From: a virus
Taxonomy: Duplodnaviria > Heunggongvirae > Uroviricota > Caudoviricetes
Length of the DNA: 7,738 bases
Strand: one strand, 5' to 3'
IMG/VR virus record: IMGVR_UViG_2802429219_000018
In this document: piece by piece, positions 3,666 to 7,738 of the stretch
Position numbering within the stretch: the stretch's first letter is position 1
Layout of the letters: every line of letters begins with the position of its first letter
Position numbers and translations under genes: made by a program
The notes under the pieces: model-generated
Database searches by the model: none
Seen by the model: only the letters and a program-made list of their open reading frames with translations
Told to the model about the DNA's origin: nothing

Positions 3666-3757
3666 AGCTACCTCGATACTGTTGCTATCGTTGGTGGTTA
3701 GAAGCCCGGTTAGTGTTAGCGCACTGCCGGGTTTCGTCGTTTTTATGAATCGATCAT

Positions 3758-3870
3758 TGTGAGATACATAGTCATCACAATGTGAGATATACATTATATT
3801 GTGGTGATATACATTGCAAGTGTTTTTATATCTCACTTTTGTGTATAGTGATATACACATAACTAATTGG
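3758..3870. promoter_or_regulatory. Divergent promoter/operator region carrying five copies of a GTGAGATATACAT-like motif, at 3758-3769, 3781-3794, 3804-3814, 3827-3836 (reverse) and 3848-3860. Candidate leftward promoter: -10 TATAAT at 3798-3793 and -35 TTGCAA at 3819-3814, with a 15-nt spacer. Candidate rightward promoter: -35 TTGTGT at 3839-3844 and -10 ACTAAT at 3862-3867.
   Basis: The repeats are read directly. The promoter hexamers were matched by eye. The spacer is suboptimal on the leftward side and the hexamers are weak on the rightward side. The operators overlap both candidate promoters. Confidence 0.5.
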
Positions 3871-3879
3871 TGATTAACT

Positions 3880-4182
3880 ATGTCTGTATACAAAAATGCA
3901 AAATCGCAAATGACAACGATCAGGGTTCCCCACGATGTTATGGAGGGTATGGAATCCGTAAAACTGGACGGCGAAAGCAACGCCGGATTCATAGTAACCG
4001 CCATGCGTGGTGAGATCGCCCGCCGCCAGGCAGAAGGAAGAGGAGAAAATCCCCTGGTTTCTTCGCTCGATGCACTGGCGCAGGTGGAAAAAATCGGAGT
4101 CAAAGCAGCCGAGGAGATCGGGCAGCTCGTCACCGTCGCGCGTGAAGAACTCCAGCGCCGCAAGGCCAAAGAACAGGAGTAG
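3880..4182 (+). CDS. 100-aa ribbon-helix-helix-like transcriptional regulator, a candidate immunity repressor. The N-terminus reads TTIRVPHDVMEGMESV...NAGFIVTAMRGEIARRQ, a beta-strand followed by two helices. The C-terminal tail is charged and coiled-coil-like.
   Basis: It is the only credible plus-strand gene. A GGTGA SD lies 6 nt before the ATG. The N-terminal pattern matches the Arc/MetJ/CopG RHH fold by eye. The gene sits immediately beside an array of tandem operator repeats, which is typical for RHH repressors. Confidence 0.65.
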   Translation: MSVYKNAKSQMTTIRVPHDVMEGMESVKLDGESNAGFIVTAMRGEIARRQAEGRGENPLVSSLDALAQVEKIGVKAAEEIGQLVTVAREELQRRKAKEQE

Positions 4183-4449: not shown

Positions 4450-5250
4450 TTACACATGGCTGTTTTCCTCCATGCGACGGGCTAACCAACGCTGCGAAAG
4501 ACGAATTAATTCAGCTTTCCGCTGGTGGTAGTCCTGGCCTAACTCAATCAGCGTGATATTGCTCTGCTCAAGGTAAGAAAGGTGCTCAAGCTGCAATGTG
4601 CTCATGTGGTCGCGTGGTTCGCCTGTGATGTCGTTCGCCTGCGCCCACTGTTTTGCAGTCATGCCACCCAGCACGATACGCGCCAGCATGTTCGCTTCCG
4701 TGGTGTAGTGGTGCTGGAGTGTGTTTTTACCCAGTTCAGCCCGGTACGCCTCCAGCGCGGCACACATTGGCTTAAAGTAGCTGGCAACTGTGATACGGGC
4801 TTTCAGTTCCCGGCGTAACGCTGCGGAACGCACTGGCGCTACCTTGTGTAGCTCCTCCTCGCATTTGATGAAGTACTGACGAACGGCGCGGCCCTGTTCG
4901 GTGCGTTCGACCATCGCCAGTTCTTTCGCCATGTTGATAGTGCTCAGGTAGTCGTGCTCTATACGTTGGCGAGATTTTGCGCTCACCGGATTGGGGGAGG
5001 TCAAATTTTCTACGAATTCAAAATCCACGCCCTTTTTAAATCCGTACTCATCAATGCGTCCTTTAATCCAGGTTGTGAAATCACGGCCTACCCCGAGCGC
5101 CTTATGCAACGCTCTGGCGCTAACAATATTGGTTTCACGCCCGCCAATAACGCCGGAAATAACCGGGATAATTTCGCCAAAATTTTGCAGATTCTGGTTT
5201 TCAGGCCGAACGAAGCCCTGCCCCTGTACGGGCGTTTTTGGAAATTTCAT
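4450..5250 (-). CDS. AntA/AntB-domain phage antirepressor-like protein, 266 aa.
   Basis: The N-terminal half (ARALHKALGVGRDFTTWIKGRIDEYGF...HDYLSTINMAKELAMVERTEQGRAVRQYFIKCEE) matches the AntA/AntB antirepressor N-domain pattern as I recall it. It is a clean ORF with an ATG start. Confidence 0.8.
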   Translation of the reverse strand: MKFPKTPVQGQGFVRPENQNLQNFGEIIPVISGVIGGRETNIVSARALHKALGVGRDFTTWIKGRIDEYGFKKGVDFEFVENLTSPNPVSAKSRQRIEHDYLSTINMAKELAMVERTEQGRAVRQYFIKCEEELHKVAPVRSAALRRELKARITVASYFKPMCAALEAYRAELGKNTLQHHYTTEANMLARIVLGGMTAKQWAQANDITGEPRDHMSTLQLEHLSYLEQSNITLIELGQDYHQRKAELIRLSQRWLARRMEENSHV

Positions 5251-5327
5251 AAAAACTCCTGCTATCGAATTAAGTTACTTTTATTTGCTGGTGGATAGCT
5301 GGGGGCAATAGCCCCGTAGCCATTTAA

Positions 5328-5525
5328 TCAGGTAGCTGTTCCGCGTGATTCCGCAATACGCTGATTAATCCACTCGTCAATTTCACTCTCAACGAAAGCA
5401 ATCGCTCGCGAGCCAATTTTTACAGGTTTAGGAAAACGCCCTTGGGCAATGAGTTTATAGATCCATGCCCTGCCATAGCCTGTACGGCGCATGGTTTCTG
5501 GCATACGAATTAAAGATTGTGACAT
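5328..5525 (-). CDS. AlpA/Vis-family small DNA-binding regulator of the excisionase/transcriptional-regulator type, 65 aa. It uses the internal ATG of the 88-aa track ORF.
   Basis: It carries the family motif RTGYGRAWIYKLIAQGRFPKPVKIGSRAIAFVESEIDEW. The ATG at 5525 has a GGGAGA SD 8 nt upstream. The longer 88-aa form would have to start inside the palindromic operator region. Confidence 0.8.
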   Translation of the reverse strand: MSQSLIRMPETMRRTGYGRAWIYKLIAQGRFPKPVKIGSRAIAFVESEIDEWINQRIAESRGTAT

Positions 5526-5591
5526 GATAATCGTCTCCCGTTGTTTATTGATGCCTACGGGAGACATTGAAGCAGGTAAGACATTGGATAT

Positions 5592-5628
5592 CACCGCAAT
5601 TGCGGTGAATGATACCGCAATTGCGGTA
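5592..5628. promoter_or_regulatory. Two perfect 16-bp palindromes, CACCGCAATTGCGGTG (5592-5607) and TACCGCAATTGCGGTA (5613-5628), 21 bp apart centre to centre. Read as a putative dimeric-regulator operator in the alpA-like promoter region.
   Basis: Read directly from the sequence. They sit 70-100 bp upstream of the AlpA-like start and directly downstream of the stop of the 251-aa gene. Confidence 0.5.
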
Positions 5629-5639
5629 TAGGACTACAA

Positions 5640-6395
5640 CTACGATTTAATTGATTTATTGGCTTCAGCAAACTTTGCTTCCAGCGTTCTTGAACTCATC
5701 CCCGGCTTACCTTCAAAATGTCCCAATAAATTACTAATAATAGAGCTTTGATTTTCGAATACAGATTGCTTAATACCAGCAGGTGAACGCCCTAACATTA
5801 GAAAAAGCAACCCTCCAATAATGTTTAAATATGTTGTTTCAGAACGTTGGTCAATGTTTTGCACGGAGTTATCAACCATTCGTCGTAGTGAATCACGTTC
5901 CCCTTGTAATTCGGAAATTTCATTTTTCTGCTGTTGGAAAGTCTTCATAGCATTATCTAAGCGAATATTAAGACGTTTGTTTTCAGCCTGAAGAGTTTGA
6001 TATGCCTCGACTGTAATTCCAGCATGTAACTGCTGCTCAACAGCATCAAAAAGGAAAGCTGGTTTTTGGTTGGGATAGTTTTTTGACATCCATGATTTCA
6101 GATCGGAATGGCGGACGGTTAAACGGTGCTTAGCAACCTGTTCTCCAGGTTGAACAGTTTTACCATCACGGCCATAAGGAATTTCACAATTATGGATTGC
6201 ATCTAAAATTTTCTCAGCATTAACACGCAAGCAAGGCCATTGAGGGAACATTCCAACGCTAGGTAAAACTCCATCTCCCACTCGCTCCAATATTAAAACT
6301 TCATGAGCAATTAAATTACACCAACGTAGCGCCGCTTCAATTGGAGTGTAATATGCCTTTTCAAGAGAACTACAGCTTTTTGAATTGTAAGTCAC
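5640..6395 (-). CDS. Hypothetical 251-aa cargo protein. It has an N-terminal globular domain, a central coiled-coil-like segment (QTLQAENKRLNIRLDNAMKTFQQQKNEISELQGERDSLRR) and a hydrophobic stretch (YLNIIGGLLFLMLG) that could be a transmembrane or amphipathic helix.
   Basis: It starts on GTG with a GAGGT SD 8 nt upstream and has no internal ATG nearby. The gene is visibly AT-richer than the flanking int and alpA-side genes. Confidence 0.7.
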   Translation of the reverse strand: MTYNSKSCSSLEKAYYTPIEAALRWCNLIAHEVLILERVGDGVLPSVGMFPQWPCLRVNAEKILDAIHNCEIPYGRDGKTVQPGEQVAKHRLTVRHSDLKSWMSKNYPNQKPAFLFDAVEQQLHAGITVEAYQTLQAENKRLNIRLDNAMKTFQQQKNEISELQGERDSLRRMVDNSVQNIDQRSETTYLNIIGGLLFLMLGRSPAGIKQSVFENQSSIISNLLGHFEGKPGMSSRTLEAKFAEANKSIKS

Positions 6396-6523
6396 TCTGT
6401 GCTACCTCGCACCCTCTGTAAAAGTGGCTGTGCCAGCCCGCAGAGGTGTACGGGTTTTCAGGAGCGACCCTAGACACAGCCTTTTCTTAATCGCTCAAAG
6501 TCTACTACTGTATACTCAACCAG

Positions 6524-7738
6524 TCACCCGCATTTTCCGAACTCACCATGCACCACATTTCCGCCATGCTCGAGCGAATCCATATAATCGGCGTACCACT
6601 GAAGCATTTCCCGCCGTCCATCCAGATATTGCGCATGGTTGTATGTGCCACGAATTGAGTTTTTATCGACGTGTGCGAGCTGCGTCTCTATCCATGCGGT
6701 GTTATAGCCCTGCTCATGCAAAATGGTGCTCATGGTGTGCCGGAATCCATGACCAGTAACCTTTCCGTTATAGCCGATGCGTTTAAATACTTGGTTTATG
6801 CTAGCCTCGCTCATTGTTTTCCTTGGATCATTACGGCCGGGAAACATAAGCGGATAATTGCCAGTTAATTCTTTAATCTGCCCAATAAGAGAAAGAGCCT
6901 GCTTAGACAAAGGCACCACATGAGGGCGACGCATTTTCATCCGTGAAGCAGGTATCTCCCAGATAGCCTTGTTGAGATCGATTTCATCCCATAATGCACC
7001 GCGCAGTTCGCCAGTTCGCAAACCAGTGATAATCAGTAGACGAGCCGCCATAACAACCAATGCACTTCCTGAGTAACTGGACAATGCCTTGAAAAAATCA
7101 GGCAATTCTTTGGCTGTGAGGAAAGGATAATGATTAGATTCATGGCCTTGCATCGCGCTAGTAAGATCTGGGGCAGGGTTATACTCTGCGCGACCAGTGA
7201 CTATTGCATAGCGGAAAACTTCCCCACACCGCTGCCTCACTTTTTTGGCTTTTTCTGTAGCACCGCGCCCCTCGATGCGTCGCAGCACATTCAGAAGTTC
7301 AAGTGGTTTGATTTCGGCGATTGGTTTTTTGCCAATGTAAGGGAACACATCTTTGTTGAAGGCTTCGAGGATGTCTGAAGCATAACCAGCAGACCATTTT
7401 TTTAATTTGCTGCTGTGCCACTCAAGGGCAATATCTTTGAAGGTGTTGTTTAACTGCGTTTCCCGGGCAATCTTTTCCTCTCGTTTCGCTTCCATCGGAT
7501 CGATACCCCCAGCGATACCCCTTTTAGCTTCTTCACGTTTTGCACGAGCATCAGCCAAGGTAACTTCAGGATACACACCTAGTGCTAACAGCTTCTCTTT
7601 ACCAGCTACACGATACTTGAAGCGCCAATATTTTCCTCCACTAGGTTTTACCAAGAGATACAGACCACCACCATCAGCCAGCTTGTAAGCCTTCTCTTTT
7701 GGCTTGGCAGTGTCTATTTGACGGGCATTGAGTTTCAC
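6524..7738 (-). CDS. int: P4-family tyrosine integrase. The start lies at or just beyond the right window edge.
   Basis: The N-terminal domain (KLNARQIDTAKPKEKAYKLADGGGLYLLVKPSGGKYWRFKYR) matches the P4-integrase arm-binding pattern. The C-terminus has HGFRHT (H-x-x-R) and GTYNHAQYL, which carries the tyrosine nucleophile. The first codon in the window is a GTG at 7738..7736. Confidence 0.9.
   Translation of the reverse strand: MKLNARQIDTAKPKEKAYKLADGGGLYLLVKPSGGKYWRFKYRVAGKEKLLALGVYPEVTLADARAKREEAKRGIAGGIDPMEAKREEKIARETQLNNTFKDIALEWHSSKLKKWSAGYASDILEAFNKDVFPYIGKKPIAEIKPLELLNVLRRIEGRGATEKAKKVRQRCGEVFRYAIVTGRAEYNPAPDLTSAMQGHESNHYPFLTAKELPDFFKALSSYSGSALVVMAARLLIITGLRTGELRGALWDEIDLNKAIWEIPASRMKMRRPHVVPLSKQALSLIGQIKELTGNYPLMFPGRNDPRKTMSEASINQVFKRIGYNGKVTGHGFRHTMSTILHEQGYNTAWIETQLAHVDKNSIRGTYNHAQYLDGRREMLQWYADYMDSLEHGGNVVHGEFGKCG

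Follow-up and report, generated by a model that had tools for sequence, protein, structure and literature searches.

Immediately ahead of alpA, in a 7,738-nucleotide stretch of Caudoviricetes DNA (IMG/VR record IMGVR_UViG_2802429219_000018; in its entirety, 'the window'), are two perfect palindromes set side by side, and the question that these raise is one of what recognizes them and with what consequence for alpA. A first-pass annotation, made from the letters of the window, had described two perfect 16-bp dyads, i.e., CACCGCAATTGCGGTG at 5592-5607 and TACCGCAATTGCGGTA at 5613-5628, centred 21 bp apart in the alpA upstream control region, and had read these as a pair of operators for a dimeric protein. 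That description is borne out in its location as well as in its geometry, with the centre-to-centre distance indeed 21 bp, and it can be extended, as each palindrome grows to a perfect dyad of 18 bp (Table 1). Relative to the alpA ATG the dyads occupy the stretch 66-104 nt upstream, which is also 12-50 nt past the stop codon (5640-5642) of a 251-aa ORF. That is, they are found within the 114-nt gap between that ORF and alpA, a gap which contains also a conserved hexamer and a leader hairpin, with the last bases of the proximal box, GTGA, entering a -35-like hexamer. Offered by the annotation as candidates for the binding protein were AlpA itself, a delta/Ogr-type activator, and a helper-phage regulator. 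The 251-aa gene immediately upstream was absent from these, and it is the C-terminal helix of that gene's product which covaries with the dyads.

Table 1. Features of the window that bear on alpA control, numbered from the first letter of the window.
Feature	Position	Strand	Remarks
Proximal operator box (candidate)	5591-5608		Perfect 18-bp dyad TCACCGCAATTGCGGTGA, centre 5599.5
Distal operator box (candidate)	5612-5629		Perfect 18-bp dyad ATACCGCAATTGCGGTAT, centre 5620.5
-35-like hexamer GTGATA	5589-5594	minus	Overlaps 3' end of proximal box; putative -35 role
TTCAAT hexamer, candidate -10	5566-5571	minus	+29 to +34 from proximal box centre; putative function
alpA leader hairpin	5533-5565	minus	9-bp arms; sequesters Shine-Dalgarno
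alpA, proposed regulated gene	5328-5525	minus	65 aa from ATG at 5525; Phage_AlpA PF05930, E 1e-19
bisR-like gene, proposed box binder	5640-6395	minus	251 aa; GTG start
int-alpA RNA motif, Rfam RF02996	6412-6480	minus	49.8 bits vs gathering score 35.8
P4-type tyrosine integrase gene	6524-7738	minus	404 aa; first island gene

Apart from these two dyads, no perfect even palindrome in the 7738 bases has arms of at least 7, and palindromes with arms of at least 8 numbered on average 0.14 in shuffled windows (500 dinucleotide-preserving shuffles). Common to both is a 14-mer, ACCGCAATTGCGGT, with exactly two copies in the window and no third one present there even at up to 3 mismatches. Looking for further copies had been suggested along with the original description, and a scan of viral contigs with this 14-mer returned at least 120 isolated single matches plus two known satellites. 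The annotation had named as what would count against an operator the possibility that this is a REP-like, i.e., dispersed, palindrome. That possibility is rejected: A 221-nt query across the region was found in 8 of 5426 complete E. coli genomes, at one copy each and always at the same island position, and there are just two dyad copies in the window as also in a complete E. coli island (L001). That latter island, from E. coli SCU-104, carries at 10415-10428 a natural variant, TCTCCGCAATTGCGGTGA, which differs solely in the outermost base of the proximal box, with core half-sites intact. A direct repeat, AGACATTG, had been pointed to as well. It exists, at 5562-5569 and 5579-5586, but is not conserved in two of the loci compared (L006 and L085) and is near chance expectation (~0.09 for a region of this size), and it has been dropped as a separate element.

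The element in which the dyads reside can be described from its gene content. In minus-strand order the window encodes the integrase, the 251-aa ORF, alpA (with product annotated as WP_004027535.1 in E. coli relatives), an AntA-domain (AntA/Bro) gene, DUF4222, and a DUF927 primase. Its nearest E. coli relatives are islands of ~12-14 kb which adjoin tRNA-Thr or tRNA-Gly, which have ProQ/FinO and PerC genes further on, and in which no phage structural, capsid, tail, or lysis genes are annotated; AntA/Bro, icd-like, DUF4222, primase, ProQ/FinO, and PerC genes are the content of the window together with the complete islands L001-L003. This is the layout of Gram-negative PICIs of the EcCI type, i.e., int, alpA, and primase in one orientation, adjacent to a tRNA gene and without structural or lysis modules. 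By gene content, then, the element is a PICI-like satellite island rather than P4. An analogy with P4 and its Vis protein had been drawn initially, and the part of this which stands is the combination of an AlpA/Vis-family gene with a P4-type integrase. The remainder does not: P4 CI/C4 or isrK RNA is not detected in the window, even at E up to 1; psu, sid, and delta are not annotated in the closest relatives (L001-L003); and the Ogr/Delta site, TGT-N12-ACA, is absent from 5525-5660. A P4-like satellite is rejected on these grounds, and the lack of that site upstream of alpA speaks also against the delta/Ogr-type protein that had been proposed as binder.

Three additional observations concern this same stretch of DNA. 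The int-alpA RNA motif, with its stems, U-run, and AGGG, sits between the int stop and the bisR-like start rather than adjoining alpA; it is found likewise after int and before the pre-alpA ORF in PICIs L008, L012, L041, L052, and L085, and the end of its consensus, i.e., a U-run and then AGGG, looks like a terminator followed by the ribosome-binding site of the next gene. Just upstream of the sole opposite-strand gene of the window, which is of the YlcI/YnfO family (3880-4182, plus) and which has an N-terminus looking to be ribbon-helix-helix, there is a palindrome, TGTGTATA-GTGA-TATACACA (3840-3859), that may be an operator of that gene. Lastly, there is a weak match to SymR-antitoxin-like RNA at 3666-3738 (plus; 32.9 bits, below the gathering score of 61, with E of 0.003), located where relatives have annotated an icd-like gene or pseudogene.

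What then is the 251-aa protein? No significant family match was obtained for it in Pfam, NCBIfam, PHROGs, or PADLOC, and yet its full-length relatives number 706, many of them 50-87% identical to it. Their alignment reveals a strongly conserved stretch of residues 1-125, a variable middle, and a conserved C-terminal part. Residues 1-125 constitute an N-domain having a weak Xis/MerR-like winged-helix resemblance and containing the invariant residues C8, C26, C55, H96, and H124. In the AlphaFold model that domain is followed by a single long helix of 84 residues (118-201, coiled coil) and then by a C-terminal three-helix domain. The latter, a small helical C-domain (residues 184-251; secondary structure pLDDT of about 90), ends with helix 235-250 (..SSRTLEAKFAEANKSIK). 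This C-domain is predicted to be a helix-turn-helix, i.e., based on its AlphaFold secondary structure and on a GISxRTLxxKF motif that may resemble the helix-turn-helix motifs of the Fis/NtrC type. A Pfam scan of 21 C-domains returned no sequence match to known DNA-binding families, and a C-domain profile compared with PDB sequences returned nothing below E = 0.9.

The gene neighbourhoods of the protein's relatives point to a regulator which already has a name. Full-length similarity, at 40-46% identity and E of 1e-50 to 1e-67, exists between the window protein and ICE-type relatives (L124, L142, and others), and in the Pseudomonas and Thauera relatives L124 and L142 the gene order is bisR-like, alpA, parA, a gene of 527-556 aa, and DUF2857 (bisC). 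The 527-556-aa gene, which is at the bisD position, had no ParB-domain match in a Pfam scan. In ICEclc the order is bisR-alpA-parA-shi-bisD-bisC, with BisR itself possessing 251 aa, no Pfam domain, three low-confidence domains of which one is DNA-binding, and relatives occurring in Alpha-, Beta-, and Gammaproteobacteria (PMC7423338). BisR received its name in 2020, as founding member of a new family of regulators, one starting the ICEclc-type transfer programme, and by itself in a host lacking the ICE it is a direct-acting and potent activator of PalpA, of about 40-fold (PMC7423338; the reporter source data being about 1500-1900 units with BisR versus 32-42 with vector and 3.3 with AlpA). The ICEclc alpA-leader primer matches the leader of one collected locus (L123) with 1 mismatch. 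No match to the ICEclc bisR primers was seen among the collected loci, meaning that ICEclc proper is outside of that set. Going by gene order, by size and description, and by the leader primer match, the 251-aa protein is a member of the BisR family. What the island does not possess, by contrast with ICEclc, is the rest of that system: ParA, BisD, BisC, and type IV secretion genes are absent from the window and from complete islands L001-L003, and there is no parA/shi/bisDC feedback loop nor TciR or MfsR input in the island. An ICEclc-type bistability generator, that is, BisR with BisDC feedback, is rejected here, there being no bisD/bisC after alpA and no conjugative genes.

Whether dyads and the bisR-like gene belong together can be judged from other loci. 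Collected via AlpA relatives (71-100% identity) was a first set of 80 viral-contig loci, and in these ACCGCAATTGCGGT boxes occur only where the 251-aa gene occurs as well. Other islands have different ORFs between int and alpA and have different repeats upstream of alpA, including ACCCTnAGGGT in 3-5 copies, CTTCCAAAA direct repeats, TTTGCATGCAA twice at a spacing of ~21 bp, and TGTAATATTACA twice at a spacing of 21 bp. As the repeats change with the upstream ORF, the partner of the repeats would be the upstream gene and not alpA. In most enterobacterial PICIs among L010-L083, int and alpA are separated by some unrelated ORF of 150-370 aa, with each type possessing its own repeat set, and a weak resemblance to the BisR C-domain is seen at the ORF C-termini of L064, L045, and L043 (E of about 1e-3 with a 75-sequence set).

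A second set, also of 80 loci, was collected via the 251-aa protein, with one genome per species, and spans Gamma-, Beta-, and Alphaproteobacteria. A few bases past the bisR-like stop codon (median 6) there are, in nearly all of these, two dyads and then an alpA-type gene, so that the order of the cassette is bisR-like, twin dyads, hexamer, RBS-sequestering hairpin, alpA. The twin-dyad score exceeds the 99th percentile of shuffles in 44 of 77 distinct loci. Taking the 48 strongest loci, the dyads are 21 bp apart in 37 and 20 bp apart in 11, and spacings of 19, 22, or 23 never occur. Retention so strict, over about 50 diverged loci, supports the original reading of the dyads as an operator pair for a dimeric protein. 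The sequence of the boxes, on the other hand, differs from locus to locus. ACCGCAATTGCGGT is the box of the window and of Cellvibrio, Stenotrophobium, Comamonadaceae, Hydrogenophaga, and Finniella; CTGCAATTGCAG is that of Alcanivorax, Thauera, Steroidobacteraceae, and others; and ATTGCAnTGCAAT is that of Pseudomonas, with further types consisting of CCGAATTCGG, ACCC(C/T)A..T(A/G)GGGT, and ACCGCCAATACGGT. The cassette is very common beside P4-type integrases in Klebsiella (L284-L291) and in Betaproteobacteria it occurs with Prim-Pol or Toprim primases, so that satellite-like islands, and not ICEs, would house most of the close relatives. One protein of the family (P0005) has listings in 723 of the collection's contig blocks.

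It is these differences between boxes which allow identification of a probable reader. The N-domain of the BisR-like proteins is the same across all dyad types while the last helix of the C-domain varies with box type. Particularly, S-x-R-T-L-E (RTLE) accompanies CCGCAA boxes, E-R-T-L-W accompanies CTGCAA boxes, K-R-T/S-L-D accompanies ATTGCA boxes, x-[TS]-[TN]-L-E accompanies CCC(C/T)A boxes, and a wholly different C-domain accompanies CCGAATTCGG boxes. The alignment columns which discriminate most cleanly are 239, 230, 235, 248, and 236, all of them in or beside helix 235-250. No CCC(C/T)A-type locus retains R236, a loss seen in at least 3 separate clades, and the GC core of the half-site is lost alongside. 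Since box types of the first 80 loci were assigned by eye, we offset this by forecasting box type from C-terminal motif for 8 loci which had not been used before, and all 8 forecasts were correct: three RTLE proteins (Klebsiella, Xenorhabdus, and Salmonella) with CCGCAA boxes and five x[TS][TN]LE proteins with CCC(C/T)A boxes. One protein among these (P0019) is 73% identical to that of the window and yet has TNLE and CCCC boxes, versus another (P0021), 70% identical, which has kept RTLE and has CCGC boxes. Dyad sequence, in short, covaries with the last C-domain helix of the BisR-like protein. Part of this covariation could reflect co-inheritance of a single recombination block rather than contact, as the boxes are only 0-40 nt from C-domain coding sequence.

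AlpA, the first candidate to have been put forward, fares differently in the same comparison. Its subfamilies are shuffled relative to dyad type, with CCGCAA boxes accompanying at least 5 unrelated AlpA subfamilies and with one AlpA recognition region (TGFKRAHIYNLMKEGKFP) accompanying four box types; and the AlpAs of two of the eight forecast loci (L285 and L290) are identical in helix-turn-helix and wing but stand beside CCCC and CCGC boxes, respectively. AlpA thus is excluded as the specificity partner. A version of that idea is that the dyads are autoregulatory operators at which AlpA dimers either activate or repress their own promoter. AlpA does activate its own promoter in EcCICFT073 (PMC6092414), and as ICEclc AlpA lowered the PalpA reporter, to 3.3 versus about 32 with vector, it does act somewhere in such promoters. 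The shuffling just described nevertheless makes such operators quite improbable here. Winged helices of the AlpA/Xis type (Xis, TorI, and the Vis family) also usually are monomers on direct repeats, which counts further against AlpA on these dyads.

Alternatively, the dyads might be bound in trans by a regulator of a helper phage or of the host, coupling induction to the helper. Such coupling has a precedent in that helper phages induce EcCICFT073 alpA transcription via a factor that was left unidentified (PMC6092414). For the dyads, though, nothing links them to a helper: The box follows a cis-encoded protein across bacterial classes which would be unable to share one helper or host factor, and the matches to the 14-mer in viral contigs are, satellites aside, isolated, single, and chance-like. 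We thus view a trans-acting binder, including the helper-phage regulator of the first-pass annotation, as very improbable.

The boxes might instead act solely as RNA, whether by ending the bisR-like mRNA with 3'-end hairpins or a terminator or by forming a long inter-box helix which insulates alpA from transcription coming from upstream. As RNA, the identical boxes (5591-5629) can pair together, forming a 14-bp helix with a 7-nt loop, and each box alone can form a 6-bp hairpin, with the minimum free energy of the region -45.7 kcal/mol (z-score -6.5). In one Stenotrophobium locus (L089) six consecutive T come after the proximal box, in the manner of a terminator. The window itself possesses no such U-tract; an intrinsic terminator is rejected there, with none called in 5526-5640 and with no T-run after either box. 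Hairpins, moreover, need neither a shared half-site nor a fixed 20-21-bp spacing, and a role confined to RNA would leave the correlation with protein residues unexplained. We give this possibility little chance.

If the dyads are read by the BisR-like protein then their position relative to the alpA promoter matters. Upon alignment of loci on the centre of the proximal box, a TG at +7/+8 is found to be conserved (1.4 and 1.25 bits) within a GTGAYW hexamer, corresponding to the conserved ...GTGA/GTGC proximal-box end seen across loci. Further along, at precisely +29 to +34, there is a TTSAAT/TTSACT hexamer in 30 of 56 distinct loci, including the window and ICE-type Pseudomonas, and the distances from box to GTGAYW and from box to TTSAAT are equal in ICE-type and satellite-type loci. 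Should TTCAAT be the -10, an uncertain assignment given that it is without the usual A at its second position and that a scan of 5200-6600 for sigma-70 promoters and terminators returned nothing in the gap, then the dyad centres would be at about -41 and -62. These are the classical class II and class I positions, respectively, for activators. The opposite assignment, of TTSAAT as -35 with a -10 in the hairpin loop, is rejected, as there is no conserved TAnnnT 16-18 nt downstream in any locus group. The arms of the leader hairpin are GTCUCCCGU (also written GUCUCCCGU) and ACGGGAGAC, and the same design, burying the Shine-Dalgarno between covarying yet still pairing arms, is seen in 65 of 69 distinct loci. 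If transcription starts ~7 nt after TTCAAT then the 5' arm of this hairpin would be truncated, and only transcripts reading through from upstream would be translationally silenced.

The same binder could also act with opposite sign. That is, the BisR-like protein might repress alpA, or might block read-through from int and bisR-like, with the island silent until receipt of a helper signal, in the manner of Stl of SaPI. The proximal box does overlap the -35-like hexamer and there is no good sigma-70 promoter; the regulator gene is upstream and in the same direction, such that a bound protein could be a roadblock; and the question of a master repressor of Gram-negative PICIs was left open in 2018 (PMC6092414). 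Against repression are the activation of PalpA by ICEclc BisR unaided, in a host free of the ICE (PMC7423338), the identity of box-to-hexamer geometry between ICE-type loci and the window, which argues for one mechanism, and the textbook activator placement of the site centres. Repression consequently strikes us as unlikely, if deserving of mention.

What we propose, accordingly, is that the dyads are operators of the BisR-family regulator which is encoded immediately upstream, and that through these alpA is turned on, a reading to which, drawn as it is from comparisons of sequences, we would assign a probability of roughly two in three. The 84-residue helix of the 251-aa protein is the predicted means of dimerisation, and each dimer would employ its two C-terminal domains in reading the paired half-sites (ACCGCAA) of a single dyad. 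A pair of dimers would then be found on one face of the DNA, 21 bp or two helical turns apart, at the alpA promoter. The proximal dimer would abut the -35-like GTGATA, and together the dimers would recruit RNA polymerase to what presumably is a weak alpA promoter. By homology with ICEclc BisR, alpA thereby would be switched on, and AlpA would in turn drive the island programme, as has been shown for AlpA of EcCICFT073 (PMC6092414). Physical binding, the dimer/tetramer stoichiometry, and the promoter elements are in this scheme inferred, as is the direction of regulation, with activation resting on the ICEclc homology. The 2020 model of ICEclc took four BisR per PalpA (PMC7423338), which fits with two dimers on two dyads.

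As to what this would mean for BisR generally, the operator that we propose consists of two dyads 21 bp apart which abut the -35 region, and the proposed reading part of the protein is the C-terminal helix, residues 235-250, employing a simple residue-to-base code. In papers from eLife (2020), PLoS Genet (2022), NAR (2025), and J Bacteriol (2026) we came upon no account of a BisR binding site, and neither the operator nor the recognition helix appears to have been reported before. When ICEclc BisR was tried on related P. aeruginosa ICEs these were not induced (PMC13393423, 2026), which is to be expected if operators and C-domain specificities have diverged; divergence of operators indeed would explain this. 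Although the BisR-PalpA node is known from ICEclc, its presence in a PICI-like satellite without BisDC is, going by gene content, new, and the node is thereby placed in phage-satellite-like islands of Escherichia, Klebsiella, Salmonella, and Xenorhabdus. If true, then a concrete entry point to alpA switching in such islands is supplied, consisting of one gene and two 18-bp sites.

A broader, more speculative suggestion, toward which we lean against rather than for, is that BisR-like proteins fill the vacant place of master switch across a large class of Gram-negative integrase-alpA-primase satellites, PICI-like and P4-like both. The invariant, Xis/MerR-like N-domain perhaps would take in a conserved phage or host cue. 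The fast-evolving C-domain and the twin operators perhaps would make up an island-specific 'code' that guards against cross-activation among co-resident islands and ICEs. Other PICIs, in turn, might employ unrelated sensors fused to a similar C-terminal reader.

Among known systems it is ICEclc BisR/PalpA (Carraro et al. 2020, PMC7423338) which the window most directly recalls, with a Pfam-less regulator of ~251 aa encoded just ahead of alpA, with relatives in Alpha-, Beta-, and Gammaproteobacteria, with ICE-type relatives in bisR-alpA-parA-bisD-bisC order, and with the box, hexamer, hairpin, and alpA layout the same in those ICE-type loci. It differs in that int directly precedes the bisR-like gene of the window, the setting of which is a primase-bearing, PICI-like satellite without the BisDC loop. 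EcCICFT073 (Fillol-Salom et al. 2018, PMC6092414) is alike in having int, alpA, and primase in one direction at a tRNA gene, and in having alpA as the key activator gene, with its promoter the point of induction. EcCICFT073-like loci (L011-L038, as grouped by sequence) differ, however, in their 3-5 ACCCTnAGGGT boxes and in possessing another upstream ORF, and AlpA autoactivation and a phage inducer have been shown with EcCICFT073 whereas here the predicted activator is BisR-like.

The resemblance to P4 Vis/PLL extends to the placement of an AlpA/Vis-family gene downstream of a P4-type integrase in a satellite, but not to the P4 RNAs, genes, and Ogr/Delta site enumerated above, and we know of no Vis binding sites that are dyads of the kind seen in the window. 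With phage lambda, lastly, CI activates PRM from about -42, class II activator sites being at -41.5. Lambda OR1/OR2 thus provides a textbook likeness, that is, two dyads, dimers on one face such that cooperativity is allowed, and a proximal dimer which abuts the -35. There is no relation in sequence or fold, the binder here being instead a predicted coiled-coil protein which would read DNA through a domain at its C-terminus; the dyads are 21 bp apart as opposed to 24 bp; and the candidate alpA promoter of the island has no divergent partner.
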